Shown here in pieces: positions 10,770 to 63,184 of a DNA stretch of 64,000 bases; the stretch's first letter is position 1; every line of letters starts with the position of its first letter. Under the pieces are notes generated by a model. It made no database searches and was not told where the DNA came from. It saw nothing but the letters and a program-made list of their open reading frames with translations. The translations under genes and the position numbers were made by a program. This DNA is from a virus (lineage: Duplodnaviria; Caudoviricetes), in the IMG/VR virus record IMGVR_UViG_3300031993_000016, one strand, 5' to 3'.

Positions 10770-11027
10770 TTACTCAGATTGAAGATCGAGTAATACTACA
10801 CTGAGGTTTGCAATAGCTTCTTTAGCCTTTGAGTCACCAGTTTCGTTTGCACAAACTGCTAAACAATCAATTGCTTGATGGATATGCTCAATGCAATCAC
10901 TATAGCAAGGTGCAGCTGTCGGAGCTTCTTCGATCACCTCTAATTCAGTTACCGGAGCTTCATCGACGGTTTCAAGTGTCTCATCAATGAACTCATCTGC
11001 TTTAATATTCTTCTTTGATATCTTCAC
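10770..11027 (-). CDS. Small acidic protein with MKISKKNIKA leader
   Basis: GAGGTG RBS; basic leader ending IKA followed by an acidic body. Confidence 0.6.
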   Translation of the reverse strand: MKISKKNIKADEFIDETLETVDEAPVTELEVIEEAPTAAPCYSDCIEHIHQAIDCLAVCANETGDSKAKEAIANLSVVLLDLQSE

Positions 11028-11322
11028 TACTAATCACCTCATTTACTTTATTTAACTTCACATAAGTTGTATCATCGCTGTTAATTAGTTTTTGGAAGTT
11101 TATAACAGCTTTATCTAGATCTTCATCTTCAACTTGTATATCATGAGCATATAGAAGGAATTTATCTAATGCTTGTGATATTTCTGGAAGATCTTGACAA
11201 GTACGATAACACGCAATCTCCAGATCTGCTAAAGCTTCAACTGCAGGAAAATCCCACAGATACTTGCGAACTTCCTTATATAATTTATTATAAGAATTTT
11301 GTATATCTGCGTAACTAATCAT
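11002..11322 (-). CDS. Hypothetical protein
   Basis: 106 aa ORF with GAGG RBS. Confidence 0.6.
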   Translation of the reverse strand: MISYADIQNSYNKLYKEVRKYLWDFPAVEALADLEIACYRTCQDLPEISQALDKFLLYAHDIQVEDEDLDKAVINFQKLINSDDTTYVKLNKVNEVISSEDIKEEY

Positions 11323-11540
11323 ATCTGCAAATTCCTCAATTCATTAGATGTAAGTTTATCTATATCAAGAGATGAAAGAAAATTGTTTCTGAGAAGAAAA
11401 CTCACCTCGTTGTCAATATTAGTATCCTGTATCTGCATAACATATTCAGTAAAGTATTGTTCAAATGTTATAGAAGGTAAATTAATTATTGTCTGCTTCA
11501 TCGTTTCTAGCATCGAACACCTCTGAAATCTTACGAACAA
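11319..11540 (-). CDS. Hypothetical protein (probable start near 11501)
   Basis: Fills operon gap; stop overlaps next start. Confidence 0.45.
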   Translation of the reverse strand: MFVRFQRCSMLETMKQTIINLPSITFEQYFTEYVMQIQDTNIDNEVSFLLRNNFLSSLDIDKLTSNELRNLQI

Positions 11541-11820
11541 GTCGACGTAGATTAAATGGTATATCTTCAGGTGACTTTGTATGTTTCATATTAACATCAT
11601 AGAACCATTGTAATGCGTCTATACTCTCAACAAGTTGATCCAAGGTAGGTATCTGAATAGTTTCTCCACCAGCATATTTACATAACAATATGAGTTTTTC
11701 ATGTCCGATGATAGAGAATAATTCAGGTAACCAACTGAATTCCGCTATGTTATGTAGCGGAGGCATGAGTTCTAGTAAGCAAGCAAAATCTAATTCCTCT
11801 GTAGTAGGAAGTTTACTCAT
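11482..11820 (-). CDS. Mor/C-like transcription regulator candidate
   Basis: IIGHEKLILLCKYAGGETIQIP resembles the Mor-family L-x-x-x-x-GG-x-x-x-x-IP motif. Confidence 0.45.
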   Translation of the reverse strand: MSKLPTTEELDFACLLELMPPLHNIAEFSWLPELFSIIGHEKLILLCKYAGGETIQIPTLDQLVESIDALQWFYDVNMKHTKSPEDIPFNLRRLVRKISEVFDARNDEADNN

Positions 11821-12580
11821 TTATATGACCTTTCAAAGGCTGTGTTTGTTTAAACACAGGTGAAATTGTAAATACAATTGCATTTTCTGTTCTAGCTAAT
11901 CTATTGAAATCTAAATTGCCGTATCCTGCAGCATTAAGGAGTGCAATTGCAGGTTCCATAACATTGTTAAGATTTATGTTATCGTTATAATGAATCCAAA
12001 TCTCAGAATCTTTAATAATAGCTCTACATACACCTTTTGTATCATCTCTAGCATTAAGCGCACCAATAATGGAATCTACGGATAAAGATGTGTTAATTGC
12101 AGGAATTACTACAATTGAATCGGAAGCAGTTACAGGAGTAGCTGATATATCCAATCGTACACTTTCTTCAACATCTTTCGATTCTGATTCAGGTGCTGAT
12201 TCAGGTGCTGATTGAACTTCAAATGTTTTCTTTTCTGGATTAAGCGCTTCATCACGTTCTTTATCGACTTCTGCAGCAGCTTCGCTCAAATGATGATCAG
12301 GTGCCGATTTAGGCGGTGCAGGTTTACTAGAAGTTGTACTAGGACGAATAACTTCTTTTTCAGACTCCTCAGCGTCTTCAGCAAGTGCAGATTCATCTGA
12401 TATAGTATCTTCAACCTCATCAACTTGTTCTTGTAAAGTATCTAAATCATTTTCATTGAGATACTCTTTAAGCTGTGTAACAAGTTCTGTATTGATAGGA
12501 TTAGCTAATGCAGCTTTTATCTTATCTTTATGCTTACTTGCTCTATAAAGTTTAGATGCAAATATTGCATTCATGCTCAT
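11813..12580 (-). CDS. Hypothetical protein with acidic disordered linker
   Basis: 255 aa; tandem SAPESAPES; AAGGAG RBS. Confidence 0.6.
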   Translation of the reverse strand: MSMNAIFASKLYRASKHKDKIKAALANPINTELVTQLKEYLNENDLDTLQEQVDEVEDTISDESALAEDAEESEKEVIRPSTTSSKPAPPKSAPDHHLSEAAAEVDKERDEALNPEKKTFEVQSAPESAPESESKDVEESVRLDISATPVTASDSIVVIPAINTSLSVDSIIGALNARDDTKGVCRAIIKDSEIWIHYNDNINLNNVMEPAIALLNAAGYGNLDFNRLARTENAIVFTISPVFKQTQPLKGHINE

Positions 12581-12603
12581 AATCTATTACTCCTTCTATA
12601 CTA

Positions 12604-13677
12604 CTAATAATCCCAACCAGGTCTAGAAAAATCTTCTTTGTACATTTCAAACTGATTTCTCAGATCCTTCAATGAGTCAGCTTCAAACGTTACTGCATTG
12701 TTGTATCGATCTGTGCGAGGGTCATCCGGTAATGGAACCATGTTAATTTCATATCGTGGCCAATAGTTATATGACTCTTGACTCATCACAGAACCACGAT
12801 CATGTGCATATGTAATAAGTGGACGAGCCCACTCCGGACATTGAATCAACAGCTTTTTATCTCCATAGAATCCAGAACGTGCTTCTGCAGCTTCAGCTTT
12901 TGCCGATTTAGTTATATCATCCTTAATATTATATAACCAATCATAAGCTTTCTGTTTACACTTCTTTGTAAGTGATTGAGTATTCTCCTCTTCAGAAAGC
13001 CTTGGATTCATTTTCAGGATTATAAAGTTACCATAAGTTCGATTACTCCAATATTTACTACTTCTAGGAACATCACCAAGTTTGCAGGTCATATATATTT
13101 TATAAGTGTGAATATTACCGCCGTATCTAGCTATAGATTCACATTCAACATCCATACAGTCAAGCTGCTTAGGTTTAAGTATATTCATAACATATGTATA
13201 TACACTGTTTGCAACATCAGCAGCAACTGCTTTCCAATCAGCTTCGTAAACTTCAGATCGTCCTGTAGATACAGTTGCATAATTCTTGACATAATATTCA
13301 AGCGAATTCCAGCTATCATATATGTCGCCATTTACAACAGCAATCATATGAGTTGTGTCTCTGTTATTAGGATTCTTACCTGCTAGTAACAAGTATACAC
13401 CATTTGGATGAGTCTCTCCAAATTCCTCTACCGTTACATAATTATTAGGATGAACTGAATTGAAGGCATCACCACGTAGTTTCATAAATAAATTAAATAC
13501 ACGCGGTTCGTTAAACTCGTCACAACCTAAGTTTCGTTTGATTCGATTCAATTCTGTGCTTACTGCATCGTAGTCCATACTGTATGCAACAGATAAACTT
13601 CGCTTTACACAATCACCTACATGATTATTACGAGAATTTGCATTATATCTAATTAAAGCCGCTTTTATATCATCCAT
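12604..13677 (-). CDS. Protein with N-terminal papain/C39-like Cys-His-Asp domain
   Basis: GDCVKRSL...HMIAVVNGDIYDSW motif order. Confidence 0.5.
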   Translation of the reverse strand: MDDIKAALIRYNANSRNNHVGDCVKRSLSVAYSMDYDAVSTELNRIKRNLGCDEFNEPRVFNLFMKLRGDAFNSVHPNNYVTVEEFGETHPNGVYLLLAGKNPNNRDTTHMIAVVNGDIYDSWNSLEYYVKNYATVSTGRSEVYEADWKAVAADVANSVYTYVMNILKPKQLDCMDVECESIARYGGNIHTYKIYMTCKLGDVPRSSKYWSNRTYGNFIILKMNPRLSEEENTQSLTKKCKQKAYDWLYNIKDDITKSAKAEAAEARSGFYGDKKLLIQCPEWARPLITYAHDRGSVMSQESYNYWPRYEINMVPLPDDPRTDRYNNAVTFEADSLKDLRNQFEMYKEDFSRPGWDY

Positions 13678-14122
13678 CGCAATTACACTCCCGATTATAC
13701 TTATCCATGTAGTTGTAAGGTTGTTCCGGTTTGTTGTTTTGAATCACATATGAAATATATAATGTGCATGTATCATCTGCGTGACGACTCATGAAAAGAA
13801 GTCGATACATATGATAACCAGTATCTAGATTGAGCTTATCTGTGCGAAATTTATACCATTTACGGAATGGGTCGTGCTCCCATAAATCTTCATCACTGAT
13901 AGCTACTACTTCATCACTGACCTCACTTACTTGACAGAGTTCAAATCTCTTAGCAACGTCTACAGGTACTTCTACAAATAGAAAATATTCTACTTCAGAA
14001 ATACTAAATACTCTGCTAAAAGAACTTGCATGCTTATAAGGTACGGCATCAAGTTTAAATACTGGGGCAGGAAATTTTCTAAAATCCTCCAATAGTCCAA
14101 GAGAAATCGGGATCAGCTGCAC
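13670..14122 (-). CDS. Hypothetical protein
   Basis: 150 aa ORF in packed operon. Confidence 0.55.
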   Translation of the reverse strand: MQLIPISLGLLEDFRKFPAPVFKLDAVPYKHASSFSRVFSISEVEYFLFVEVPVDVAKRFELCQVSEVSDEVVAISDEDLWEHDPFRKWYKFRTDKLNLDTGYHMYRLLFMSRHADDTCTLYISYVIQNNKPEQPYNYMDKYNRECNCDG

Positions 14123-14348
14123 GAGTGTTACGCGTTACTGTGTAACCCTGACCCTTAAGGACAACTTGTATAGCATCGCTTAGAGATTTACTCCAAGTAA
14201 TTGAGTGCTGACCTGTATTTGCAGCACTGTTGATCGCAGCCGCTACGGCTTGTTCTTCTAATATCTTAACAGCTTCGTCTGCTACAGCTTTAACATCAGT
14301 AGCAGGCTTAAGGTCTGTTAATTCATCAATAGGAATTAATGTTGCCAC
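14079..14348 (-). CDS. Hypothetical protein
   Basis: AGGAGG RBS, GTG start; late-type motif at 14431. Confidence 0.6.
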   Translation of the reverse strand: MATLIPIDELTDLKPATDVKAVADEAVKILEEQAVAAAINSAANTGQHSITWSKSLSDAIQVVLKGQGYTVTRNTRAADPDFSWTIGGF

Positions 14349-16771: not shown

Positions 16772-17014
16772 TTAAAATAATCTCTTAGGTTTCTTCGGTG
16801 TAGCTGCTGAATCGGTTACAACACTATTAGTAGTTGTAGAAAACAGCTTCTCAAGTAACTCTGCAACTGTATATTGTTTTCCGTGAATACTTACAGTTGC
16901 AGGCGTATTTGGTTTTGTCTCTATTTTCAAAAAAGACCCATTTTGAATGTTTCTAACACGACCTAAATTAGATACTTCATAATTAGGCCCAAATCGTTTC
17001 CAAATCTCTTCCAT
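16772..17014 (-). CDS. Short NUMOD4-domain protein (endonuclease remnant)
   Basis: EEIWK...YEVSNLGRVR; no HNH; ends KKPKRLF. Confidence 0.65.
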   Translation of the reverse strand: MEEIWKRFGPNYEVSNLGRVRNIQNGSFLKIETKPNTPATVSIHGKQYTVAELLEKLFSTTTNSVVTDSAATPKKPKRLF

Positions 17015-17031
17015 ATGTTTATCACCTGATC

Positions 17032-18021
17032 TTAGAATAACTTCTTAGGTTTCTTAAGCTTAGTTGCATCAAACGCATAAGTAGTTTTAATAAGTTTCTG
17101 AATACTTCTAATAGTAAATGCTACTCGTGCTGAAGATGACTCTCTAAGCTGTTCCAATGTAAAACCGGAAGATGTTATTTCATCCATTAATAATTTTCTG
17201 TTGTAATCATCACAAGTGTCTATGAAACTCATATTTGATTTTGTGTTTGAAGTTCTTGCTTTCTGTGTTAGTGAAATAACTCCGAAATTGATAGACAGTA
17301 TTTTGTTGTATGCACTTATATGTCTATGTGATATAGAATCTGCACTATAGCAAGCCAGTTTACTTAGACCTTCTAACGATGTATATCCATATAAATGTGT
17401 TTTAACATTAGGGTTAGATGATGATTCAATGACACCATTGCATTCATTTATGTAGATATTGCGGACCGTCGTTACGCAGTCGTTCGCTGGCGATAAGCCG
17501 ACATACTCCAAATGCTTACCATTTTCGTCCTTCCATTCAAGCATATTTCTAAGAGCATCAAATGACTCGTTGTGATGGAATACAGGCATGATCTTATTTG
17601 GTGACTTTACTTTGGTACGCATATATAGATAATTATCCCAGCTCTTCTTCACAGACTCAATATAATCCTCAGGAGTTTTAGGCTTTTGGAACTGTCCTGG
17701 AATAGTATCAAGCTGTGCGAATACATCTACGTATTCATCAATACTATTGATGTAATTTATATAATTATCTTCCCAATCACGAAATGTTGGATTTTTTATC
17801 GATTTATCAGGAAATTTAGCATTACCAGTATGCACACTAAATGCTCCCGAATCTACAAATAAAGTTCTGATGAATCCTTCTTTCTTCCACTCAATTGCTT
17901 TTGTAATTGCACTTCTGTCAAGCTGTGTTATAAGTATGTCTAACGGCTCAAAATCTGGCGCTGACAATAGCATATCATGCATCGATTCTGTTAATGAGCC
18001 AGAGAAGTAATATGTGTCCAT
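17032..18021 (-). CDS. dpdA: DpdA-like deoxyguanosine:7-deazaguanine transglycosylase (TGT fold)
   Basis: FVDSGAFS, QLDTIPG, PVFH, HLYG, SADS motifs of TGT/DpdA; full que pathway in the same window. Confidence 0.8.
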   Translation of the reverse strand: MDTYYFSGSLTESMHDMLLSAPDFEPLDILITQLDRSAITKAIEWKKEGFIRTLFVDSGAFSVHTGNAKFPDKSIKNPTFRDWEDNYINYINSIDEYVDVFAQLDTIPGQFQKPKTPEDYIESVKKSWDNYLYMRTKVKSPNKIMPVFHHNESFDALRNMLEWKDENGKHLEYVGLSPANDCVTTVRNIYINECNGVIESSSNPNVKTHLYGYTSLEGLSKLACYSADSISHRHISAYNKILSINFGVISLTQKARTSNTKSNMSFIDTCDDYNRKLLMDEITSSGFTLEQLRESSSARVAFTIRSIQKLIKTTYAFDATKLKKPKKLF

Positions 18022-18983
18022 CCAGGTACCTCCTTAATTTTAGCTCTAGGCCATGTAAAATATTTATCTTTTGTTTCCTTTATGTAACTGTTTATATCAA
18101 TTAACGAATTTATTTGATCTGTATATATGAATGTCCACCCAAAACAGCAGCTACATCTTTCAATAGATGATGTGATTGCTGCAGGATCACAATTAAGTTC
18201 ATTTGCAACTTGTCCAATAGAATCAAATATATGTCCAGTATCTAAACAAGTTATCTGTCGACCTTGAGTGCGTCGGATTGCAGCTATTGCATTAGCTCGA
18301 CCTGAACGTGCTATTTGATCATGTACGTTATATTTAGCAGTACACCACTCTAAATTTTCCACATGATTATTATTTCGTACACCATCAATATGATTAACTT
18401 GAGGTAAATTATTTGGGTTAGGGATGAAAGCTTGAGCTACAAGACGATGAACGGTATAATATGCATAGTGTTCATTATGCACCAAATTTACTTGTGCATA
18501 TCCATCCGAGCTTAATGTCAACTTCATCAATCTATCAGGATATCTGCGGATACATGTTGTATGAGTATCCTTACGTGTGTAAGTTTCAACATGTGCTAAT
18601 CGCTTAACTCGCCCCTTATCAGATACTTGATATATGCCTTCAAATCCTTTGATATCTTTCCAATGCTCATCTACTAAGCTGTCAGCTGTATCTATTTCAA
18701 GATTATCTAATCGAATGTTACTATAATCACCATCTTTGTGACGTATCTTAGGTTTTATATTGGACGTGATATCTACACCTAAAAATGCACACGCCATGAG
18801 ATATTTAACAGAAAATACTACGTTGGAATTCTTCATAGCTATGCATACAGAACTTTGTCCAGAAGTTGGATTTGTAATTTTCAATATATGATTCCGTTTG
18901 ATGTGACGTACTCGGCCTAGATTACTAACTTCGTACCGGTCTTCCATAGTAGGTATTGGTTTCCAAACTTCATCCATGTACAT
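17991..18983 (-). CDS. Tandem NUMOD4-HNH homing endonuclease
   Basis: Two NUMOD4 modules; VHRLVAQAFIPNPNNLPQVNHIDG..NN..ENLEWC. Confidence 0.88.
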   Translation of the reverse strand: MYMDEVWKPIPTMEDRYEVSNLGRVRHIKRNHILKITNPTSGQSSVCIAMKNSNVVFSVKYLMACAFLGVDITSNIKPKIRHKDGDYSNIRLDNLEIDTADSLVDEHWKDIKGFEGIYQVSDKGRVKRLAHVETYTRKDTHTTCIRRYPDRLMKLTLSSDGYAQVNLVHNEHYAYYTVHRLVAQAFIPNPNNLPQVNHIDGVRNNNHVENLEWCTAKYNVHDQIARSGRANAIAAIRRTQGRQITCLDTGHIFDSIGQVANELNCDPAAITSSIERCSCCFGWTFIYTDQINSLIDINSYIKETKDKYFTWPRAKIKEVPGWTHITSLAH

Positions 18984-19018: not shown

Positions 19019-19450
19019 CTAGAATTCATGATTGCTTAGATAAACATAAATATCTGCATACGCAACACGACCTGAAGTTGCTAATTCATTTGCAAGCCAT
19101 TCGAAATAATCATGTATATCAGATTTTAATGCACCTTTATCAAATATTTCTGAATCGAATCTATCATTATAATCTACATCTATTATATGAATGTAACGAT
19201 CTAGTCGACTTTCATGTACATCATATGTGTGCTGTAGTATGAATCGAACAGAAGGTAGCTTATGAGAGCCTTTAAATGTATCGGTGCGATGTAGTTTCTC
19301 TGCAACCTCTTTACGCCAATGATTAACTTCTGAGGCAGCTGGGTACATCCGTAATTTGATAAGATGTAGTATCAATTCATCGCAACCTTGTTCTAAATCT
19401 GCTGCTACATCAACTCTAGATTTTGACATAGCAAAAATATATCGTTCCAT
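19019..19450 (-). CDS. Hypothetical protein, DUF29-like; MERYIFA leader
   Basis: LILHLIKL...HWRKEV motif. Confidence 0.45.
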   Translation of the reverse strand: MERYIFAMSKSRVDVAADLEQGCDELILHLIKLRMYPAASEVNHWRKEVAEKLHRTDTFKGSHKLPSVRFILQHTYDVHESRLDRYIHIIDVDYNDRFDSEIFDKGALKSDIHDYFEWLANELATSGRVAYADIYVYLSNHEF

Positions 19451-20519: not shown

Positions 20520-20918
20520 TCAAGAACCTCGTACACACTTCGTAGTAGAAGCTTTCAGAGCATATGTCAGATACAGATTTGAGGCAGCACACCCACCGCA
20601 TGGATCATAGAATCGAATAGTGTTAGTAGATTTATTTGGATCAAATCCTGCTAAGAATGCTTCTGCAACTAATCGTTTGATAGCTACATTACGTCGTGGC
20701 TCACCTTCTTTATGAAGGTGCACATAAGCTGTTGATGTACCTGTATATATCGGAGTTAATAGTTTCCCCAATCGCTGCCAAGATTCGTTACGAAGCGAAC
20801 CGTCTTTTCGAGTAACACCGATAACATGTGTAAGCCTAGGAAGAGATCTAACTCGACCTAAATTACTAACTTGATAGTAACCCTCATACCCCATTATATC
20901 TTTCCACACCTCATTCAT
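20520..20918 (-). CDS. NUMOD4 protein, degenerate HNH
   Basis: EVWKDIMGYEGYYQVSNLGRVRS; HNH residues absent. Confidence 0.75.
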   Translation of the reverse strand: MNEVWKDIMGYEGYYQVSNLGRVRSLPRLTHVIGVTRKDGSLRNESWQRLGKLLTPIYTGTSTAYVHLHKEGEPRRNVAIKRLVAEAFLAGFDPNKSTNTIRFYDPCGGCAASNLYLTYALKASTTKCVRGS

Positions 20919-37393: not shown

Positions 37394-38260
37394 TCAATCT
37401 CTCCCTTCTATTAATTCGAACTGTAATCCTTTAACATCTACACCTTCACTAGCAGACCGCTTGATAGTGCTACTATCTAAATTATATCGAAGTGCAGCTT
37501 CGGCTAAACTTCGATATTCAGTACCGTCAGTGACGCACCTTACAGGTATCCCACATATCTGTTTTGAAAGTTCTCCGCAAACTTTTGGATTTCTCAAACC
37601 TAATTCTATTGAATGTTGAAGGTTCTCTATGTTAGTGACCCATTCTAGATTTTCAACATTGTTGTTGATCTTATTCCCGTCTCTGTGATTAACCTGAGGC
37701 AAATTTCCTGGATTTGGTATGAAAGCTGATGCTACTAATCTATGTACGCTACACAATTTTGATTCACCTCTCACTGACAGCATACAATGTTCATATCCGT
37801 CAGCACCTACATGAAGCTTTAGCTCATGCACATCTCTAAACACAACTCCGCCGTTGTAACTAACTAAGCGGCCGACACTTCGTATCTTGCCATACCTACT
37901 CGCCTGATAGCTGCCTTCATAGCCTGGTATAGATTTCCAAATCTCATCATCCACAACTTCTGGAGATACTATAGAAAGATTACTCACTGCATCGGAATTA
38001 CCAGATAGATGAAATACTGGTGTATCGGGCGTATATCCTTCTAGAAATGCTTCTGCTACAAGCTTACTTACACGAATTGTAGACACGTTACCGTCTTTGG
38101 ACAAGTACACTTGACCCCGATATGGCTTCAGTACATTTTGACCTATGCGCCTCACTTCTCCTAAAGAGCTGACCTCATACAGACCTTCATAACCTTTGAC
38201 AGATCTCCATCTGCATTCGCCAGTAGATGCACTTTCAGGAATGTTGAAAAGCTTTCGCAT
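37394..38260 (-). CDS. Tandem NUMOD4-HNH homing endonuclease
   Basis: Two NUMOD4 modules; VHRLVA..FIPNP..LPQVNHRDGNK.NN..ENLEW. Confidence 0.88.
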   Translation of the reverse strand: MRKLFNIPESASTGECRWRSVKGYEGLYEVSSLGEVRRIGQNVLKPYRGQVYLSKDGNVSTIRVSKLVAEAFLEGYTPDTPVFHLSGNSDAVSNLSIVSPEVVDDEIWKSIPGYEGSYQASRYGKIRSVGRLVSYNGGVVFRDVHELKLHVGADGYEHCMLSVRGESKLCSVHRLVASAFIPNPGNLPQVNHRDGNKINNNVENLEWVTNIENLQHSIELGLRNPKVCGELSKQICGIPVRCVTDGTEYRSLAEAALRYNLDSSTIKRSASEGVDVKGLQFELIEGRD

Positions 38261-43412: not shown

Positions 43413-44024
43413 TTGAATAATTCAAAGGAGGTCAATGATATGAATGAAACTTGGAAACACATTGATGGATTACCACTAGGATATGAAATATCCGATGCAG
43501 GTAACATAAGAGAGAATTATGGTGATCATTATGAAATAATGAGATTGTCTAAATCGGGCAAGTATTTGACGTTTTGTATACGAGGTAAACAGTTGTTAGT
43601 ACATAGACTAGTTGCTGATGCATTCTTGCCTAAACCAAACATACAGATAGGTAGGTGGGTAATACTACACTTAGATGGAGACACGCATAATAATGCAGTA
43701 ACTAATTTGCAGTGGATCAATGCTGTAGATCTATATTTTACAAAGGCTCATAATGAATGTATTATAAGATGTATAGAAGATCAGCTCACATTCAATTCAA
43801 TACAGACTGCAAGTGCATTTTATGGTATTCCTACATATACTTTGACAGCATGTATAGATGCAGATACAAGCATATGCGGATTACATTTTCAGCGTATGCC
43901 GTCTATAGAAGTTAAGGACTGCGATATTATAGCATCCGGATCGCAAATCACACACATCTTAGCAAATATGTCATATGTCGATCTTGCAGAACTGCAAACA
44001 GCGATGAAACAGTTGAACAAATAA
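43413..44024 (+). CDS. NUMOD4-HNH endonuclease (probable start 43440)
   Basis: ETWKHI...YEISDAG, VHRLVA.AF, HLDGD.HNN..NLQW; AAGGAGG RBS. Confidence 0.8.
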   Translation: MNNSKEVNDMNETWKHIDGLPLGYEISDAGNIRENYGDHYEIMRLSKSGKYLTFCIRGKQLLVHRLVADAFLPKPNIQIGRWVILHLDGDTHNNAVTNLQWINAVDLYFTKAHNECIIRCIEDQLTFNSIQTASAFYGIPTYTLTACIDADTSICGLHFQRMPSIEVKDCDIIASGSQITHILANMSYVDLAELQTAMKQLNK

Positions 44025-46062: not shown

Positions 46063-46482
46063 TTATCTCGATAACATATCATATAATTCATCTGTATCAC
46101 TTCTGTCAGCTACACGATATGTAACACCATCCTTAACATGAGTACTGCGTTCACAGGACGGAGAATAAATAGTATAGCCCATTTTCTTGAATCTCTTATA
46201 AATATCGCTATTCCACCAATCCGGTATTACATATTTTGGAGAATAGATAGTATTTGGTTCAATAGCTTTTACAAACGTTGCAGGAACTTTTACAACTCTG
46301 TCAGATAATCCATATATGTATAATGTACCTTCAAATGAATCATCATATACATATAATGTCTCATAGTTTCTAGCTTTCCAATCAGTGTTGTTCCAGATTT
46401 CAATATCAGCATCTGACCACTCACTAAGGTCTGCACGTTCCCATGGATCATATGTATATGTTGATTTTATATATCGTTTCAT
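46063..46482 (-). CDS. MKRYIKS-leader protein
   Basis: AGGAGG RBS places the start at 46482. Confidence 0.65.
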   Translation of the reverse strand: MKRYIKSTYTYDPWERADLSEWSDADIEIWNNTDWKARNYETLYVYDDSFEGTLYIYGLSDRVVKVPATFVKAIEPNTIYSPKYVIPDWWNSDIYKRFKKMGYTIYSPSCERSTHVKDGVTYRVADRSDTDELYDMLSR

Positions 46483-46731: not shown

Positions 46732-47349
46732 ATGCGAGCAAAAGAAGCATTAGAACTTTTACAAGTTCATCGTGTTACTCTTAATAGATATGTACGTGAA
46801 GGCGTTATTAGAGTAACAAAATTATCAAATGGTAGATATGAATATAATGATGAAGATGTGCTTAGATTCATAGGTAAGAAGCAAAAAACACATAGTACTA
46901 AAGTAATTTCATATTCAAGAGTATCTACACAATCACAAAAATCACAATTAAAAGAACAAACACAAAGAATTTATGATAGTTGTACTTCAAGAGGTCTTAC
47001 CTTAGATGAACAATATGAAGATATCGGTTCTGGTATGTCATCTGACAGAAAAAACTTTAATAAAATCTGCCAAATGATATTTCACGGTGATGTTGAATTG
47101 TTAATTATTGAAAATAAAGACCGTCTTGTTCGTTTTGGTTTCGATATGCTTGAAAAGTTTTTTAGTTATTTTGGTTGTAAGATACTTGTTTTAAATGACT
47201 CAATAGAAAATAAATCTTATGAACAAGAACTTACAGATGACCTTATATCTGTTATTCATTATTTTACAATGAAATCCTATTCACACAGGCGTAAATTAAA
47301 TAAACTAAGAAGGGAACTAGAGAATGAAACAAAATCTAATAACTCTTAA
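46732..47349 (+). CDS. tnpA: IS607 serine-recombinase transposase
   Basis: N-terminal MerR-like HTH, YSRVST, DIGSG, KDRLVRFGF, ELTDDL. Confidence 0.92.
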   Translation: MRAKEALELLQVHRVTLNRYVREGVIRVTKLSNGRYEYNDEDVLRFIGKKQKTHSTKVISYSRVSTQSQKSQLKEQTQRIYDSCTSRGLTLDEQYEDIGSGMSSDRKNFNKICQMIFHGDVELLIIENKDRLVRFGFDMLEKFFSYFGCKILVLNDSIENKSYEQELTDDLISVIHYFTMKSYSHRRKLNKLRRELENETKSNNS

Positions 47350-48700
47350 AATTAAATATTCTTGTAATACTTCAATTTTAGATGTTATTAGACAGTATAA
47401 TTCTGTACTTAAATTCACTTATAATCGATTAGTAGAGAATTCAAAATTAAAAACTTCTGAAATTACGCAGTTACAGAAAAATCTTAATAATTGTGATTTA
47501 ATAGGGTCTCATTTAAGAAATTCAGCTATATATGATGCAAAATCTTTAGTAGAGCATTCTGATAAACATATTATTTTTGGTGGTAAGTGTCTTTTTAAGC
47601 AAAGATGTCAGCATAAAATAGATAAAGATGAATTTTTGCTTAAACGATTAAGACCAATAAATTCAATAGGTGAAGCAAATCAGAAAGCAAATCGCCTATT
47701 TGATATAGTAAACAATCAAACTATTATGTTTAAGTTGAATAGGCAGCAACACTTTGAATTAAAATTACAACAAGTAGGCACTAAAAGACTCAAAGAACTC
47801 AATAGGCTAATAGAACTGCAAAATAACAAACAAGTTGCAATAACTTATAAATTAGATTTGGATTATGTTTATCTTATTTTTGATTATAACTCATTAAAAA
47901 CTTATGATTATAAAGTTAAATTTAATAGAGTTATGGCAATAGATTTAAATCCAAATAGTATAGGTTGGTCAATTGTTGACTGGTTTGCTGAAAATAAATA
48001 CACTATGATTCAGTCAGGTACTTTTAGTCTTAAACCACTTAATGATTATAGAAATTCTAAATCAGTTGCATCTGATAGTAATTTTCATAAATACATAACA
48101 AATAAGCGTAACTATGAAATTATACATATTGCTAAAGACTTATTTACCTTATGTAGGCATTATCATTGTGAGATATTTTCTATTGAAGACTTAAATATAA
48201 AAGCTTCTGATAAGAAATTAGGTCGTGATTTTAATAGATTAGTAAATAATAATTGGAATAGAAATCTTTTAGTTAACCAAATAAAGAAACATATAAATTC
48301 AAGTTCTACTACTTTAGTAGAAGTACAGCCACAATACAATTCTTATATAGGTAATCTTGTTTTTAGACAAGAACATTTACCAGATGAATGTTTAGCCTCT
48401 ATTGAGATAGGTAGGCGAGGATTTGAATTTGCAACACAGTATATTTTTAGTAGACGATCGCATCAAAAGACAGTTATTTATCCAAAACTAGAGTTAGTTA
48501 AAAATCAACTTACCTTATCGTTGGAAGAATTAGGTATCGATATTCCTAACTTAGAATCTTGGAAAAATATTTTGTCTGCGGTCAAAGAATCGAAAGTGAA
48601 ATATCGGTTCTCTACTTCTGAAGCACAGATTTATCATTCAGAAGGTCTTTTTAGTAAGTTTTATAAATATAAATACTTAAAAATTTATGTATATTTATAA
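47324..48700 (+). CDS. tnpB: TnpB RNA-guided nuclease (Zn-finger-less type)
   Basis: RuvC-I AIDLN, RuvC-II IEDL, then VQPQYNSYIG...PDECLASIEIGRRG without CxxC pairs. Confidence 0.85.
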   Translation: MKQNLITLKIKYSCNTSILDVIRQYNSVLKFTYNRLVENSKLKTSEITQLQKNLNNCDLIGSHLRNSAIYDAKSLVEHSDKHIIFGGKCLFKQRCQHKIDKDEFLLKRLRPINSIGEANQKANRLFDIVNNQTIMFKLNRQQHFELKLQQVGTKRLKELNRLIELQNNKQVAITYKLDLDYVYLIFDYNSLKTYDYKVKFNRVMAIDLNPNSIGWSIVDWFAENKYTMIQSGTFSLKPLNDYRNSKSVASDSNFHKYITNKRNYEIIHIAKDLFTLCRHYHCEIFSIEDLNIKASDKKLGRDFNRLVNNNWNRNLLVNQIKKHINSSSTTLVEVQPQYNSYIGNLVFRQEHLPDECLASIEIGRRGFEFATQYIFSRRSHQKTVIYPKLELVKNQLTLSLEELGIDIPNLESWKNILSAVKESKVKYRFSTSEAQIYHSEGLFSKFYKYKYLKIYVYL

Positions 48701-51608: not shown

Positions 51609-51902
51609 TCATCTTTTCAACTTTGCTACCATACGTTCAATCAGATCCTCTGTATCTGATAACATTGCATCATATTCAGTAGCAACTTCTACAAGATAGA
51701 TTGATTCAATGAATTTAAGTTTACGTTCTGGTGTTTCAAACGGACTACTGTATATATGACGAGCTTGAGCTCTTGCCATTTCATTGATCTCATTAATGTC
51801 ATTAGACCCACCTAACAAGCAATCTTTACCATCTGGGCTTATCCAATGAACTTCATATTTTGTTTTCCAAGGACTTACTGCGGATTTAATATATTTTTTC
51901 AT
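51609..51902 (-). CDS. MKKYIKS-leader protein
   Basis: GAGGTG RBS. Confidence 0.65.
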   Translation of the reverse strand: MKKYIKSAVSPWKTKYEVHWISPDGKDCLLGGSNDINEINEMARAQARHIYSSPFETPERKLKFIESIYLVEVATEYDAMLSDTEDLIERMVAKLKR

Positions 51903-51917: not shown

Positions 51918-52835
51918 CTACCGTTTACCTGAGTTGAAGTCATCGATATATGTTTCAACGTCATCTAAGTTACTATTTATGTAGCTGACCTGTTCTGAAA
52001 AATCTTGCGGACCAACTTCTCTCCAACCTCTAGTTGACTTTAACTTACCAGATTCATCAATCTGAGCAAGCAATTTTTGATATTCAGAAGCAGTATCGCC
52101 AAATCTACTGAATGCATTACGAAGATCTGTGCTACCATATTCTGAAGGTGTGTTGAAATTAACATTTATAAGCTTTGTTTTTACTTTCAGCATTCTGTCA
52201 TATACTGCATTAAGCTTATCAGTAATCTTCTCAGGGAATCTCTCATAATATCTTGCTATCATGTCTTCAGGACTTGGAACTGCATATCCGGACTTATCAC
52301 GAGCCTTACGTTCATTAGAAGCTGTACGACCTTTCTTTGACCAGGTACCTTCTTCGCTATATTTACCATCACCTAAGTACTCATAATCTTTGTATTGTCC
52401 CATGTAGGTACCTTTGCTATTATGACGATAGCTGTATCTCGGATCTTGATACCTATCATATTTAGGCTTATGCACGTTGTTTGGATCTGAAAGATCTAAG
52501 TAGCAGATATCTTCTGCCATTGTAGGTAACTTCGACTTCGCGATAGACCCAAGCTTTCTATACCTACCACCGATGTCAGTTGACTCATCGTCGTTGATAC
52601 CAGGGCAGTAAACTATTCTACTGTAGTAATTGTCGTTAGGTCTGAGTAAATAAAATGTTAGATAATTATTACTTGCAGGTCTTTCACCCTGGAAATTAGC
52701 AGTATCGAGAGATACATTGTATCTATTAACTAAGTTGTTGATTAATCTAGTTTTAGAATAACCACCACGGGTGATTTCTTTTCTCAACCAATCAGGCATA
52801 CTTCCTGATATAGATGCTTTGATATATCTTTTCAT
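51918..52835 (-). CDS. MKRYIKA-leader protein
   Basis: 305 aa, AAGGAG RBS, promoter motifs at 52868-52884. Confidence 0.7.
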   Translation of the reverse strand: MKRYIKASISGSMPDWLRKEITRGGYSKTRLINNLVNRYNVSLDTANFQGERPASNNYLTFYLLRPNDNYYSRIVYCPGINDDESTDIGGRYRKLGSIAKSKLPTMAEDICYLDLSDPNNVHKPKYDRYQDPRYSYRHNSKGTYMGQYKDYEYLGDGKYSEEGTWSKKGRTASNERKARDKSGYAVPSPEDMIARYYERFPEKITDKLNAVYDRMLKVKTKLINVNFNTPSEYGSTDLRNAFSRFGDTASEYQKLLAQIDESGKLKSTRGWREVGPQDFSEQVSYINSNLDDVETYIDDFNSGKR

Positions 52836-52888
52836 TATAGTTAGCTCCTTCCGTTATATTTTCTACATATAACGATATAAGGTTTGGA

Positions 52889-56298: not shown

Positions 56299-56952
56299 TC
56301 ACCAGTGTGACATCTTGAACTGACGTGCTAATTTTGTTATATTACCTGAAAGCATTAACGGCTTGTTTCTATCAATTGAAATCGAACCATCGTCATAAAT
56401 TGTTATATCTGTGACATATATTCGATCTCCTCTAAAATCATAACGATCATATGGAACACGATATGTTCTGCTTGTAGCATTTCGTTTTATCAACTCAATG
56501 TATTTATCGGAATCCTTATAATTAGAGTTGTTTCTAAGTGCTGCAGAAGTAGAAAATGTAGGTATAATCTTATATTCTGCAAGACTGCGAATTATATCAA
56601 CATCTTGAGGATCTATATTTTGAAAATCATTAAGATCAACTTCTTTACGACTCGGTGTTATGTCATCGGAAATTTTAAGACGAATATAAAATGGTGTTTT
56701 AGGTAACAATCTATCTGTCGAGTTGTCTGTGGTAATATCAGACACACCTGGGATATCTATACTCTGTAGATATGCAAAATCATCATCTCGAATCTTATCT
56801 GATACATATGCAAGTCTCATACCTTTAGTAAGTTGTGATATCTTATCATAATTAAGTTCTCGTTTGTGCTTCATGCTGAATATTAGATTCTTTATATCAT
56901 CATATGCTATGCGACCATCCTCTGATGAATCGCTTTTAATGTATATTTTCAT
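56299..56952 (-). CDS. MKIYIKS-leader protein
   Basis: 217 aa, AAGGTG RBS. Confidence 0.65.
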   Translation of the reverse strand: MKIYIKSDSSEDGRIAYDDIKNLIFSMKHKRELNYDKISQLTKGMRLAYVSDKIRDDDFAYLQSIDIPGVSDITTDNSTDRLLPKTPFYIRLKISDDITPSRKEVDLNDFQNIDPQDVDIIRSLAEYKIIPTFSTSAALRNNSNYKDSDKYIELIKRNATSRTYRVPYDRYDFRGDRIYVTDITIYDDGSISIDRNKPLMLSGNITKLARQFKMSHW

Positions 56953-57016: not shown

Positions 57017-57382
57017 TCAACTACGTCTACGTTTTGATGGTGCATCACGTCTAAGATACAGATTCCTACTGTAGTCAGCTGGTGTAAGTTGATTGTAATA
57101 TTCCAGCATGAATTCACGATCAGCGTCTTGAATCCTGACACCACGTAAATCATTATTTAAAGTTTCAATCATATCGATTACATATTCATCAAAGTATTCA
57201 TGTCGGTGATCATATACAAATTTTGGATAATCTAGTTCGTCTGATGCAATAAAATCTTTTATGATATCTTTATTAAAATCATTTCTAAAATACTTTGTAT
57301 ATACAAGTCTGTTTACTAATTTACGTAATTCTATTAATTTAGTAGTAGACATTGTATAATCGCTTTTAATATATCTTTTCAT
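57017..57382 (-). CDS. MKRYIKS-leader protein
   Basis: AAGGAG RBS; promoter motifs at 57431 and 57450. Confidence 0.65.
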   Translation of the reverse strand: MKRYIKSDYTMSTTKLIELRKLVNRLVYTKYFRNDFNKDIIKDFIASDELDYPKFVYDHRHEYFDEYVIDMIETLNNDLRGVRIQDADREFMLEYYNQLTPADYSRNLYLRRDAPSKRRRS

Positions 57383-57461
57383 AATTCATCTATCTCCTTT
57401 TTTTTTCAAAAGGTTGTTATCACCTAACTATATTAAAGGTTACATGAGATATAACGAAATT

Positions 57462-58551: not shown

Positions 58552-58770
58552 TTATCTAAACATTTTCGCATACTTTTCCGCGATTCTTTGATATTCATCT
58601 GCTGAGATTTCCTCAGTACCTCCGAAGGAATCATCAAACCTTTCGGTCTCTGACTTAAAGTATCTTTCACCACGTTTAGTTCGTTTTATACCGTAGTAAT
58701 GATTATTCCAGGTTATGATATCGTCTAAATCCATTCCGGATTTTCTTGCTGCTTTGATATATCTCTTCAT
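58552..58770 (-). CDS. MKRYIKA-leader protein
   Basis: GAGGAG RBS. Confidence 0.65.
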   Translation of the reverse strand: MKRYIKAARKSGMDLDDIITWNNHYYGIKRTKRGERYFKSETERFDDSFGGTEEISADEYQRIAEKYAKMFR

Positions 58771-59350: not shown

Positions 59351-59689
59351 CTAATATGCATACTCGTCATACACTTCTTGTGTTATGTAGCCGTAGTCGA
59401 GTAAGTCGTCAAGTATGTGATCTAAATCACCTTCAAAGTAATGACCACCATCCCATGGCTCTAAGCTGAGATAAGCGTCAAGTCCATTATCTTTGATAAT
59501 TCTCTGATATTCTTTGAGCTTAGGTAAGCACTGATTAAGAGGTCCGTCAAAGGATTCTTCAAATTCATATTCGTCAGATTCTTCTGCTCCATATACATTG
59601 AGATTAGCTGTAAATTTAGTAAGGAGATTTGCACCTAACCATGTACCCAATTGATGACTTGCATCACCTGCTTTTACATATCTCTTCAT
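59351..59689 (-). CDS. MKRYVKA-leader protein
   Basis: AGGAGG RBS. Confidence 0.65.
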   Translation of the reverse strand: MKRYVKAGDASHQLGTWLGANLLTKFTANLNVYGAEESDEYEFEESFDGPLNQCLPKLKEYQRIIKDNGLDAYLSLEPWDGGHYFEGDLDHILDDLLDYGYITQEVYDEYAY

Positions 59690-59699
59690 AATCTACCTC

Positions 59700-59951
59700 C
59701 TACCATTCGCAGTAATCATTCAAATAATCAAGAGCATTGTCAATTGCATCTATTTCATCTTCAAGTTCTTCGATATCTTCGTCAATCTTATCATATCTTT
59801 CCTGCTCAGCATCTGTGAGATCTCTATCGTAATCATTTGCCTTTTCTTCGATAGCTTCTTGTTTCTCTCTAAGGGCATCAATCTTATCTTCTATATTTGC
59901 TCTGATATCATCTAATTTGTTTACTATGTTGTTTAGCTTTATGATTGCCAT
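59700..59951 (-). CDS. Small acidic coiled-coil protein
   Basis: 83 aa, D/E-rich heptads. Confidence 0.6.
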   Translation of the reverse strand: MAIIKLNNIVNKLDDIRANIEDKIDALREKQEAIEEKANDYDRDLTDAEQERYDKIDEDIEELEDEIDAIDNALDYLNDYCEW

Positions 59952-59965
59952 AGTATTACCCCCTA

Positions 59966-60229
59966 TTAAGCTTTAGTTAACTGATGAGATTTCGTCATAA
60001 GTATTTCAGAAGCTTGTCCTAAGATGCTAAGTTCATCATCAGTGAAATTTTCTACAAGATCAGAATATCCTATATTCTGAAATACTTCAAGTACGCCGAG
60101 ACAATCATCTATGTCTGTAGCAATCAGTCCAAGCTTTCTGCCAAGTCGAGCTATTGTGCTCAATCTATTTTCATTTGCTGCACCTTCAAATCCATATGGA
60201 TCCGATGCACTGATTATACGCTTTTTCAT
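59966..60229 (-). CDS. MKKRIISA-leader protein
   Basis: AGGAGG RBS. Confidence 0.6.
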   Translation of the reverse strand: MKKRIISASDPYGFEGAANENRLSTIARLGRKLGLIATDIDDCLGVLEVFQNIGYSDLVENFTDDELSILGQASEILMTKSHQLTKA

Positions 60230-60241
60230 ACTAGAATCCTC

Positions 60242-60556
60242 CTAATGCTTTATGTACCAGTTGATGCATTCAATATCTTCATCATCTAAGAATTCATCTT
60301 CTAGCTTGTAACTTAACCAATCTTTCTCAAGAGGTGTAAGTCGGATGATGCCTGTAAAGTTATCTAACTTGTTGTATGCAGCACGTGCTTTTCTGCATAT
60401 ACTTCTACCTTCACCTTCATCATGTTGCTCTGTCATGACTCGGAGAGTATCAAGTCGATTCATACGTTTCATCAACTCGTCTTTGGACAAGTAAGATGTA
60501 ACAACTTCACCATTAGAAAATCTATAGGTGTGAAGTACTTTGTTTAATTGCTTCAT
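60242..60556 (-). CDS. Hypothetical protein
   Basis: AGGAGGTG RBS; promoter motifs at 60589 and 60619. Confidence 0.6.
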   Translation of the reverse strand: MKQLNKVLHTYRFSNGEVVTSYLSKDELMKRMNRLDTLRVMTEQHDEGEGRSICRKARAAYNKLDNFTGIIRLTPLEKDWLSYKLEDEFLDDEDIECINWYIKH

Positions 60557-60709
60557 TATACACCTCCTATATGTATCATTATTACTGATATATAAGGTGA
60601 TTTAGCTTCACAAATACATTAACGATTTTTACATAGTATAAGACCCTAACTAAGCTGGCAAACTTAATCAGGGCCTAAGGAGAAAAATAAATGTATAGTT
60701 ACTTTAAGC

Positions 60710-61258
60710 TTACTTGTTTGGGTGCACAAGGTTTCTTATAAAATAATACTTATTTTCAAGGTCAACTGCAGCCTCGTCTATTTCTTCTAATTGCTCGTCA
60801 GATAACAAGCTGAACCACTGTTGACCATTGATGGTTATTGGGTTACGGTCAAGTTCTTGCATGTATGCCGCATACTTTTTAAGGCCTTGCGAAAGAGTCA
60901 GACCTAATTCACTCATTTGCAGTAACTCTTGTACTCGATCAAGTGGTTGCGAATCTTCAGCAATTTCGGTCGACATCATGATATCGTCATCATCAAATCC
61001 TGTATAACTATCAAACCATTCATGGGCTTCTGCTTCATTGTCAAATTCTGCATCGCAGCTGTTAGATGGATTGTAGAAATCTACATCACCGAATATACAG
61101 ATCCATGTATCATCCATCCAGTTGTGCCAAAGGGAGTAATCTGTGGAAAATCCGTCGTAATCTAAAACAGATTTTTTAGCTATCATCTCCCAACCTGCAA
61201 GAGCATCATAATCATCATATTCATCTAAATCAGAATCATCAAAGAATTCATCTTGCAT
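60710..61258 (-). CDS. Acidic hypothetical protein
   Basis: GAGGAGG RBS; 182 aa. Confidence 0.6.
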   Translation of the reverse strand: MQDEFFDDSDLDEYDDYDALAGWEMIAKKSVLDYDGFSTDYSLWHNWMDDTWICIFGDVDFYNPSNSCDAEFDNEAEAHEWFDSYTGFDDDDIMMSTEIAEDSQPLDRVQELLQMSELGLTLSQGLKKYAAYMQELDRNPITINGQQWFSLLSDEQLEEIDEAAVDLENKYYFIRNLVHPNK

Positions 61259-61261
61259 GAT

Positions 61262-62773
61262 TTAATCCTCCTCATCAAATGTACTTTGTATTTCATCTAC
61301 AATGTGATTGAAATCTTCATCCACATCTGCAAATGTAAGATCTTCAATTGGTAGTTCATATTCTACTATAGTAAGTACACCTGCGTTTTCATAAGTAAGT
61401 GTTATGTAGAGATTCTCGTCATCCCCATCATCTAATAATATTGAATCTATGGCATAATTATCAGAACCTACTGTACCATCTACTGCCCATTTATTCAATT
61501 TATCACCGATTAGATTGATATATGAGTCATTGTTATCCTCATCATAATCATCATCGTCATTGTAATCATTATCAGCATCTTCTGCAGCTTGCACCACATC
61601 ATATGTAACTAAATCTGCTTTTTCTTCATTGTGGTTTGCAGTATCAGCTGTAGCACCTTCTACTACAGCTGATTGATCGCAACCCTCAATAAATGATGAA
61701 TCATCAGGTTCAAAACCTAAATAATTTATCATATACTGTTTAGCTTGTTCAAGTGAGCAATCAAAATGATCTGCGATGTATTGTTGTTCAGCAGCAGTTT
61801 CTGTACCCCAATCTCCAGAAACTGGATCAGATGTTACGAAGCTATCTGCGATATTCCACAAATCGTCTACCTGTGCTGGAGTTAATTCATCAGTTGCACA
61901 AGCTACGTTTACTGTGTTAGTTGCTGAATCAATTACATCCTGTGGAAGATCTTTAAGATCTTCTGGATAATTCTGCATTGTATCTTTATACCATTGGTCT
62001 AATGTATAAGGCTGTTCTGAATCATCGTATAAATCAATATAAGATGCAACACCTTCTGCATAATTTTTTACTTCTTCGGATTCTGCGTCATAGCCTTTAG
62101 ACGATAAAAAGTCTAATACTTCAGCTACGGAGGTTGTTGAGTTGACATTTGTAGTAGAGTTAATTCCGTTAACTTCTGCAACTTCACGTCTTGCATCGTT
62201 GACGCTTTGTATGAATTCATCAGTTAATTCAAATCCATCTGCTATAGCGTCTTCGCATCTTTCCTTAAGATAATCATCATAAGAACCGGTAAAATCATCT
62301 TCATATTCTGACTGATAGCATTCACCTAAATGTTTATCATATCCATAATAATCAACAGCTTCAGGATCATCTGTTTTGGACTGCCAATAAGCATATAAGA
62401 ATCTAGTCATCTCACCTATTGTCATATCGTCTAGACCCTTAACTGCATCCGGATCAAAATATGAACTAGCACTTATATATCCATCAGCTTTCAGCTCTTC
62501 TAGTTCATCTTCAAGATATTCATCTAAAGAGCCTTCAAATGCACCTTGGGAAACATCACTGTTATATGTATCAATTATGTCGTCTTTAAATGCTTCAAAA
62601 TCTTGACCTTCACCCCAACAATCATATAACTGTTTGAATAAATTGTCTTGAGAAGCTTCGATTGTTTGTGTAGATGTTATATCATTAGAATCTTCTAAAA
62701 CATCTATCTGACGCATAACAGCGTTAAGCAATTGGTCAGGTGTTCCTTTTGTAATCTTGCTCAATGTATACAC
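61262..62773 (-). CDS. Highly acidic multi-module protein (candidate processed internal head protein)
   Basis: 503 aa, D/E-rich blocks separated by S/T/A linkers. Confidence 0.6.
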   Translation of the reverse strand: MYTLSKITKGTPDQLLNAVMRQIDVLEDSNDITSTQTIEASQDNLFKQLYDCWGEGQDFEAFKDDIIDTYNSDVSQGAFEGSLDEYLEDELEELKADGYISASSYFDPDAVKGLDDMTIGEMTRFLYAYWQSKTDDPEAVDYYGYDKHLGECYQSEYEDDFTGSYDDYLKERCEDAIADGFELTDEFIQSVNDARREVAEVNGINSTTNVNSTTSVAEVLDFLSSKGYDAESEEVKNYAEGVASYIDLYDDSEQPYTLDQWYKDTMQNYPEDLKDLPQDVIDSATNTVNVACATDELTPAQVDDLWNIADSFVTSDPVSGDWGTETAAEQQYIADHFDCSLEQAKQYMINYLGFEPDDSSFIEGCDQSAVVEGATADTANHNEEKADLVTYDVVQAAEDADNDYNDDDDYDEDNNDSYINLIGDKLNKWAVDGTVGSDNYAIDSILLDDGDDENLYITLTYENAGVLTIVEYELPIEDLTFADVDEDFNHIVDEIQSTFDEED

Positions 62774-62777
62774 CCCC

Positions 62778-62954
62778 TTACAATGTTATAAGTCCTGTAT
62801 CGTCAACTGTATCTGTATAATAAGCATCAGAACACTCTTCTATAGAAGTGTTACATGCTGATTCTACAACGTTGCTATCTAAATCAGCTATTTTGTTCTT
62901 AACTGCGTTGAGTAATTGTTCAGGTGTGCCTTTTGCACATGTTATCTTGTTCAT
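62778..62954 (-). CDS. 58-aa protein sharing the KGTPxQLLNAV module with its downstream neighbour (not in ORF track)
   Basis: Manual translation MNKITCAKGTPEQLLNAVKNKIADLDSN...; GGGGGTG RBS; ATG overlaps the upstream TGA. Confidence 0.7.
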   Translation of the reverse strand: MNKITCAKGTPEQLLNAVKNKIADLDSNVVESACNTSIEECSDAYYTDTVDDTGLITL

Positions 62955-63184
62955 TCAGTCACCCCCTGTAATATATCAGCTATCTGTGAAATTGCATCGT
63001 TTATTGTATCTGAAATGCTCTGTGCAATTTCGACGCCTGCATCACTAGCAGATGCGTCAGATCTGTCTAATTTTTCAAGACCTGCAACTAGATAGTCATA
63101 ATCTTCGTCAATTTGATCTAGTAATGTTGATAATTCACTAGGTTCGGTAGATTCTGCAGCTACAATAGGTGTATACTTTTTCAT
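62951..63184 (-). CDS. Small acidic protein, MKKYTPIVAA leader
   Basis: GGAGG RBS. Confidence 0.6.
   Translation of the reverse strand: MKKYTPIVAAESTEPSELSTLLDQIDEDYDYLVAGLEKLDRSDASASDAGVEIAQSISDTINDAISQIADILQGVTE

Follow-up and report, generated by a model that had tools for sequence, protein, structure and literature searches.

An eight-residue N-terminal leader shared by unrelated proteins of a tailed-phage clade: a candidate capsid-targeting signal

In this study, we analysed a 64,000-nt stretch of tailed-phage DNA (IMG/VR record IMGVR_UViG_3300031993_000016; "the window" hereafter means this whole stretch), transcribed almost wholly from the minus strand, and a short peptide that opens otherwise dissimilar proteins encoded in it. 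This octapeptide, M-K-[RKI]-Y-[IV]-[KR]-[SA]-[SA], is probably a capsid-targeting leader that a protease removes. It exists as a recurrent tag, is under selection at the protein level, stands on many unrelated bodies, has been gained, lost and swapped among orthologues, and ends in a motif of the head proteins; from the sequences we infer cleavage, docking to the prohead core, encapsidation and injection. Most likely, the tag would work like the capsid-targeting sequence of phage T4, with which it has only a few residues in common, and would serve a far larger cargo repertoire.

Distribution of the leader

Seven open reading frames (ORFs) on the minus strand of the window begin with the strict form MK[RKI]Y[IV]K[SA], and a GGAG-type ribosome-binding site lies 5-9 nt ahead of each. 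The initial annotation had claimed seven such starts, and all were recovered at the coordinates listed below. It had also put forward four looser versions; three of them resemble variant leaders that recur in relatives and are probable members, and the fourth, MERYIFAM (19450), is doubtful. The position-matrix score of MERYIFAM was equal to background, and it was rejected as a member, as were MKRYLTLAQ (50745) and MKRLLIDN (59340) after being weighed. The features are as follows (aa, amino acids; the slash marks the predicted cut; G001 and G003, and G004 further below, are relatives):

46063..46482, minus strand: cargo gene, 139 aa, leader MKRYIKS/T (leader codons 46459-46482)
51609..51902, minus strand: cargo gene, 97 aa, leader MKKYIKS/A, without a Pfam or PHROG family
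51918..52835, minus strand: cargo gene, 305 aa, leader MKRYIKA/S, immediately downstream of folE
56299..56952, minus strand: cargo gene, 217 aa, leader MKIYIKS/D
57017..57382, minus strand: cargo gene, 121 aa, leader MKRYIKS/D; its single homologue, in G001, has the leader MYRYIRSS
58552..58770, minus strand: cargo gene, 72 aa, leader MKRYIKA/A
59351..59689, minus strand: cargo gene, 112 aa, leader MKRYVKA/G
59966..60229, minus strand: probable variant leader MKKRIISA/S, 87 aa, fitting the MKRVIISS and MKKVIIS forms of G001
62951..63184, minus strand: probable longer variant MKKYTPIVA/AE, 77 aa, putatively read as MKKY plus I-V-A-A
10770..11027, minus strand: probable second leader type (GTG start) VKISKKNIKA/D, 85 aa, like MKINKKQIKAS of G003 and MKVSKKSIKSS of G001
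19019..19450, minus strand: doubtful member MERYIFAM, 143 aa, with a weak PHROG match, function unknown

In a six-frame translation of the window, [KR]Y[IV]K[AS] gave six matches, each of them residues 3-7 of a tagged ORF. By chance, 0.66 would be expected after mononucleotide shuffling of the window, and 0.098 after shuffling of residues within its 90 predicted proteins (maximum 1 over 500 shuffles). The claim that the bodies are unrelated past the leader was borne out: after the first 10 residues were trimmed, no pair of the seven proteins was similar by BLASTP (best E 0.076, with a database of about 1 kb residues). The ten candidate proteins gave sub-threshold matches only against PHROGs and Pfam, and a literature search with the motif string returned no match.

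No close cultured phage was found. When 15 kb of the window was compared by megablast with 50,697 phage records, there was no match, and the nearest cultured capsid proteins were about 26% identical. The sole sequencing run containing the stretch, a DNA run, comes from a bovine gut metagenome, possibly the source sample; no RNA runs containing it were listed. Relatives in IMG/VR have portal proteins 58-74% identical to that of the window, and five of their contigs, 527 kb together, were used complete. The tag is present in all five. After trimming, BLAST sorts the 57 tagged proteins of the window and these contigs into 52 components. With one narrow codon pattern, 60 stretches were retrieved from IMG/VR, concentrated on contigs with capsid or portal genes of the clade. 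The clade total came to 203 distinct tagged proteins (median length 123 aa) in 155 BLAST clusters, with 131 singletons. The densest arrays hold 11 tagged genes among 16 in 9 kb, and in relatives tagged genes are found directly behind the capsid gene, too, as well as between the sheath and portal genes.

Across the clade, the consensus is M-K-[RKIV]-Y-[IV]-[KR]-[SA]-[SA]. Although position 8 lay outside the selection pattern, about 64% of leaders have S or A there; positions from 9 on gave no signal. The tetrapeptide [IV][KRTNHQM][AS][ASD] begins at residue 5 in 59 of 1890 clade proteins, 14.8 times its internal rate; longer leader variants account for lesser excesses at residues 6-9 and 12-13. 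A long leader type, MKR[TK]F[TR]KYPxxY[IL][KRQ]AS, was observed on at least four unrelated small proteins near the G004 capsid gene (L038:10582-11437, L038:967-1632, L039:1956-2363). Another type, MK[IV][SN]KKxIK[AS][SD], was observed on three proteins in three phages, including that at 10770-11027 of the window.

Motifs of the head proteins

The window was tied to a head module by its portal gene:

5139..6659, minus strand: T4-type portal gene (PHROG portal; Pfam Portal_T4 on ENA contig k141_4744591, 163,809 bp)

The same contig encodes a 116-aa small head protein, a 484-aa S77 protease-scaffold and a 488-aa Gp23 capsid protein; the portal gene therefore lies on a contig with Gp23 and S77 genes, which links the window to that module. 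The 484-aa protein (L165:5509-6963), encoded upstream of the capsid gene, consists of an N-terminal S77 domain and a coiled-coil scaffold of about 290 residues. Pfam Gp23 and Peptidase_S77 were also detected in relatives, S77 in all 24 protease domains tested. A profile comparison (hhalign) of the protease with T4 gp21 was modest (E 7e-5, probability 62%); it pairs G-H-P with N-H-P and G-I-S-V-R-G with G-V-S-S-R-G, blocks that we take to hold the catalytic His and Ser. Sequence and profile searches of the protease-scaffold against the PDB gave no match; its kinship with T4 gp21 rests on Pfam S77 and the modest hhalign match. By phmmer with T4 head proteins, the portal alone was recovered, and hhalign of the capsid protein with T4 gp23 covered the C-terminal part only; the propeptide junctions are not directly alignable. 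The same protease-scaffold fusion was seen in SP-15-like Bacillus and Listeria phages. One relative (IMGVR_UViG_3300028914_000060, 175,559 bp) is rated 100% complete by IMG/VR, yet Gp23 and S77 profiles find nothing in it; either the completeness estimate is wrong, or its capsid and protease genes have diverged too far or are interrupted.

Members of the capsid family, more than 855 in number, have about 67 variable, basic residues at the N-terminus, which end at a near-invariant block. The junction pattern was found in 121 of 160 capsid homologues (median propeptide 67 aa); in these 121, the residues before A-T-N-[TS]-T-N are x-[IV]-x-A, with G instead of A in four; the typical end of the propeptide is [IV]-[TM]-A/A. 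The motif [IV]-x-A-[ASG] has a density of 39 per 1000 residues in the propeptides versus 2.5 in the mature parts, about a 15-fold difference, and 336 copies were observed in propeptides versus 43.7 +/- 6.2 when each propeptide was shuffled. The same motif marks three conserved places in 37 protease-scaffolds: [IV]-[KTV]-[AS]/[AD], with both A and S at P1, in a short, variable N-terminal extension (29/37); F-T-x-[IV]-A-A/S-[ST]-D just past the protease domain (37/37); and [IV]-T-A/S-T-S-V about 55 residues before the C-terminus (30/37). On the contig described above, the capsid protein has the sites ISAA, VTAS, VMAS and ITAA/TNTTN, and the protease-scaffold has KVEA/D, EIAAS/TD, TVTAA/T and RVTS/TTSV.

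In T4, gp23 has L-T-E/A-E-I-G at 65 residues, the same distance as the clade junction, and gp21 has L-I-E/T after nine residues, where self-cleavage activates the enzyme (PMC9958956). The I-T-E/S of T4 gp21 aligns by hhalign with [IV]-A-A/S of the clade. The clade sites appear to be homologous to the T4 cleavage sites, with a putative cleavage motif [IV]-x-A/[AS] in place of the [LI]-x-E/ of T4. The leader ends in this motif, and a pathway can be proposed. Tagged proteins would be made in the infected cell, and the leader would dock them to the assembling prohead core, itself built around the protease-scaffold fusion. After closure of the shell, the S77-type protease would cut after the [SA] at residue 7 (P3 = I/V, P1 = A/S, P1' = S/A) and free a heptapeptide; the mature cargo would stay in the head and enter the next infected cell together with the DNA.

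One of the closest known counterparts is the capsid-targeting sequence on T4 IPII and IPIII (also IPI and Alt), which is removed by the gp21 prohead protease (PMC3012670, PMC9958956). In both systems, a short N-terminal leader precedes unrelated, dispensable and hypervariable proteins and ends in the head protease motif, cleavage being a prediction in the clade; the head type (Gp23, Portal_T4, Peptidase_S77) is also alike. Compared with the T4 leader MKTYQEFIAE, only M-K-x-Y and the P3 Ile are common, and the peptide is too short to judge homology. Unlike in T4, the tag has 8 residues rather than 10, the predicted cut follows Ala or Ser rather than Glu, tagged genes number tens per genome and clade cargo clusters at least 155 (a handful in T4), leaders are not conserved as DNA, and the protease is fused to the scaffold.

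The predicted specificity resembles that of the herpesvirus assemblin (pUL26); in pseudorabies virus, the release site is YLQA/T and the maturational site VQA/S (PMC4498786). The putative [IV]-x-A/[SA] is alike, and the leader core Y-[IV]-K-A/S resembles the release site. Like pUL26, the phage protein has an N-terminal protease and a coiled-coil scaffold, with one site just past the protease domain and one about 55 residues before the C-terminus. Unlike assemblin, the phage enzyme belongs to Pfam S77 and not S21, so the likeness lies in architecture and in the specificity of predicted cuts. To our knowledge, the herpesvirus system does not employ its site as an N-terminal cargo tag. In giant phages (SPN3US, with gp245, and phiKZ), many head and ejection proteins have N-terminal propeptides that the prohead protease cuts off after A-X-E, with several motif copies, as found by mass spectrometry in SPN3US (PMC10052503). 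Capsid propeptides of the clade likewise have several motif copies each. Unlike the clade tag, the giant-phage propeptides have 20-254 residues, share no short tag and are cut after Glu.

A distant cultured relative, Streptococcus phage vB_SagM-GXN1 (PQ819873.1), has, as in the clade, a protease-scaffold gene followed by the capsid gene, and the capsid propeptide has the sites LIE/S, LLE/N and LLE/S. In this phage, five genes start with MRL[VI][RK]LxE (132585, 132841, 134401, 98803, 122094), and the reversed-pattern control gave 0. Three of the five, all small and mutually unrelated, follow closely behind the capsid gene. Like the clade, GXN1 thus has an 8-residue leader on unrelated small proteins by the capsid gene that ends in its own L-x-E motif; unlike the clade, it differs in leader sequence and P1, has only five copies, and is in culture. 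GXN1 appears to hold an independent leader and protease pair; we know of no description of its leader. In T4, MKTYQEFIAE ends in I-A-E and occurs twice in the genome, as DNA-identical copies. In each of the three lineages, which represent two P1 classes, the leader end matches the local head-protein motif. This co-variation among lineages is the strongest single argument for a putative protease-processed head signal.

Selection on the leader and alternative explanations

Comparison of orthologues places the boundary between leader and body at the motif. The 139-aa cargo has an orthologue in G004 that begins with a 16-residue leader, MKKTNRVYPKSYVKAS, followed by /Y, and the body alignment of the two starts at the residue just after [SA]. 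In most relatives, the small head protein, whose gene immediately precedes that of the protease, starts at its core M-[DE]-x-[IL]-x-F-T-P-A-A-L-L; in other relatives, MKKVIHAAEE, MKKRYIRSAE or MKINKKQIKAS (the last in G003) stands ahead of the core. The C-terminal domain of the 217-aa cargo recurs in six further proteins, of which four begin with the leader variants MKRYIRSA, MKRVIRAS, MKRYIRSD and MKRMITAK.

These boundaries bear on the possibility that the leader is an uncleaved docking or localisation tag, directed to the scaffold, the portal or some other structure of the phage, and that its likeness to the head-protein motif is coincidental. The residue preferences differ as such a tag might lead one to expect: P1 is mostly Ser in leaders and nearly always Ala in the capsid and scaffold, P2 is K/R in leaders versus T/M/A at the head sites, and the two agree in a loose motif, four residues long and made up of small residues. 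However, position 8 is mostly S or A without having been selected for, orthologue bodies align exactly from the residue after the motif, and the N-terminal extension of the protease has both A and S at P1. We regard an uncleaved tag as unlikely.

The leader is conserved as a peptide. In the window, its codons are varied (TCA, TCC and AGC for Ser, CGA and AGA for Arg, ATA, ATT and ATC for Ile), and in 83 clade leaders the choice among synonymous codons for Y, I, V, S and A follows that of the genome (p > 0.05). A mild A-rich bias is confined to K and R (AAA 0.70 vs 0.57, AGA 0.63 vs 0.47). The initial annotation had named conservation at the nucleotide level only as one observation that would refute a peptide signal; this is excluded, as synonymous codons are free and the leader is kept as a peptide. 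In the 305-aa cargo family, all 52 homologues, down to 25% identity, retain the leader, the mean pairwise identity is 0.84 for the leader and 0.43 for the body; among 289 eight-residue windows, only 3 are conserved as well as the leader. All 11 homologues of the 139-aa cargo (42-70% identity) retain it as well. Within families the leader is far better conserved than the body, which indicates selection on the peptide.

The same codon data weigh on the idea that the leader is an expression device, in which an N-terminal peptide or an AAA-rich, K-Y-I codon ramp helps small accessory genes in translation initiation or in early elongation. The mild excess of AAA and AGA would fit it, and MK starts are common in the genome. 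In Escherichia coli, K/N-Y and K/N-I at codons 3-5 are reported to raise expression. Such a device, however, would not leave codon choice for Y, I, V, S and A free, and has no place for small residues at positions 7-8 or for long variants that keep the Y-[IV]-K-[AS]-[ST] end; the highly expressed capsid, sheath and portal genes are without the leader. This explanation is very unlikely.

Pfam searches of 75 tagged proteins gave about six matches (two BspA-type leucine-rich repeat (LRR) proteins, LRV, GNAT, phosphoribosyltransferase and HEAT); as the families differ, the tag sits on unrelated folds. An AlphaFold2 model of the 305-aa cargo has a predicted local distance difference test score (pLDDT) of 85, with residues 1-6 disordered; Foldseek found nothing in the PDB at E <= 0.001 with it, and the ESM Atlas held no usable match for this protein. 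The variety of folds matters for a further alternative, that the leader is a functionless relic of common descent or of cassette exchange, with either one fast-evolving paralogous family or bodies swapped at the 5' end. Tagged genes do lie in tandem arrays, and T-even internal-protein loci are hypervariable behind a conserved 5' end (PMC3012670). However, the 24-nt leader is not conserved as DNA and therefore cannot act as a recombination site, the cargo includes unrelated known folds (LRR, GNAT, phosphoribosyltransferase), its 155 clusters are without detectable similarity, and the leader is more conserved than the body within families. A relic is thus, like an expression device, highly improbable.

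The leader could also serve an end outside the capsid: the proteins might be degraded at a set time, activated by the phage protease in the cytoplasm, or exported. A 2026 preprint reports activation of CBASS immunity by phage proteases (PMC12991175), which would fit an activity outside the head. Against such fates, T4 gp21 is active only after prohead assembly (PMC9958956), and the leader motif is common to classic intracapsid processing sites. A hydrophobic core of at least 10 residues, as in a secretion or lipoprotein signal, is absent after the tag, where positions 9-16 are polar and variable; nor does a lipobox follow. We give little weight to this alternative.

Several observations weigh against a capsid-targeting, protease-removed leader. 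The first are the P1 and P2 differences described above. In the window, the tagged genes flank DNA-modification genes and not structural genes. A late promoter shared by leader and structural genes failed as a candidate, as the promoter-like element AACCTT is equally frequent upstream of leader genes (8%) and other genes (8%). The roughly six Pfam-matching cargo proteins include no known anti-defence family. Cargo isoelectric point (pI) and length are not different from the rest of the proteome (median pI 4.84 vs 5.04). The clade sequences are mutually related, and the counts given above are not independent events. The core of the initial proposal, a leader like that of T4 cut after (I/V)-x-(A/S), is supported by the motif at the capsid junction and the protease sites, the leader swaps and the co-variation; the shared-promoter argument has to be given up. 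On balance, we hold a capsid-targeting leader to be the probable explanation.

Promoter-like element, neighbouring genes and implications

The initial annotation had placed an AACCTT-type motif directly ahead of several tagged genes and of the portal and sheath genes. It is indeed present 33-108 nt upstream of the portal gene, three of the seven tagged genes and the gene that precedes the sheath gene; it is not specific to leader genes. One copy is the following:

52878..52884, minus strand: AACCTTA promoter-like element, 49 nt ahead of the 305-aa cargo gene (others like it at 57441, 57415 and 46590)

The longer form AACCTTWWWW occurs nine times in the window, and eight copies lie 29-110 nt upstream of start codons in the correct orientation (442, 3010, 6694, 14441, 46590, 52884 and 57441 on the minus strand, 46669 on the plus strand). 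In three relatives, AACCTTATAT is found upstream of the capsid gene. No k-mer upstream of leader genes was significantly enriched after multiple testing. AACCTT is probably a general promoter element of the clade.

Between 48752 and 58307 on the minus strand, a 7-deazaguanine cluster (amidase, folE, queE, queD, queC, queF and a Vut_1/YhhQ-type transporter) is interleaved with four tagged genes, and the phage probably modifies its own DNA, judging from these genes. On the plus strand at 46732-48700, opposite to the surrounding minus-strand array and adjoining the tagged gene at 46482, a serine recombinase (205 aa) with MerR-type helix-turn-helix and resolvase domains overlaps a 458-aa ORF without a Pfam match; the pair looks like an IS607-type insertion. 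Gene starts with E-x-W-K-x-I, typical of HNH/NUMOD homing endonucleases, were seen at 37394-38260, 16772-17014, 17991-18983, 20520-20918 and 43440-44024. One of these genes matches HNH endonucleases of Enterococcus phages, and mobile nuclease genes are abundant in this genome.

In sum, we see about an even chance that the following wider picture holds. In a cattle-gut clade with more than 855 capsid homologues, a T4-type protease would have been re-tuned to a herpesvirus-like (Ala or Ser)/Ser specificity, and an 8-residue tag would load dozens of proteins per virion, from at least 155 unrelated families across the clade, as injected effectors, with sister lineages, a cultured Streptococcus phage among them, holding independently matched leader-protease pairs. 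If so, the early-acting proteins of these phages for host takeover and anti-defence would form a reservoir that is still mostly unexplored, and co-evolution of leader and protease would be a general rule for T4-type heads. S77 proteases would be able to switch P1 from Glu to Ala or Ser, converging on the assemblin rule and the protease-scaffold architecture, which would bear on the common ancestry of capsid assembly in tailed phages and herpesviruses. The tag would also be a ready means of protein delivery, a handle of 8 residues for loading foreign proteins into phage heads in Gram-positive hosts. If the tag works as proposed, an MK-x-Y-[IV]-[KR]-[SA]-[SA] start would flag the packaged, probably injected proteome directly from metagenomes, and would offer hundreds of candidate effectors of the first minutes of infection for functional screens.

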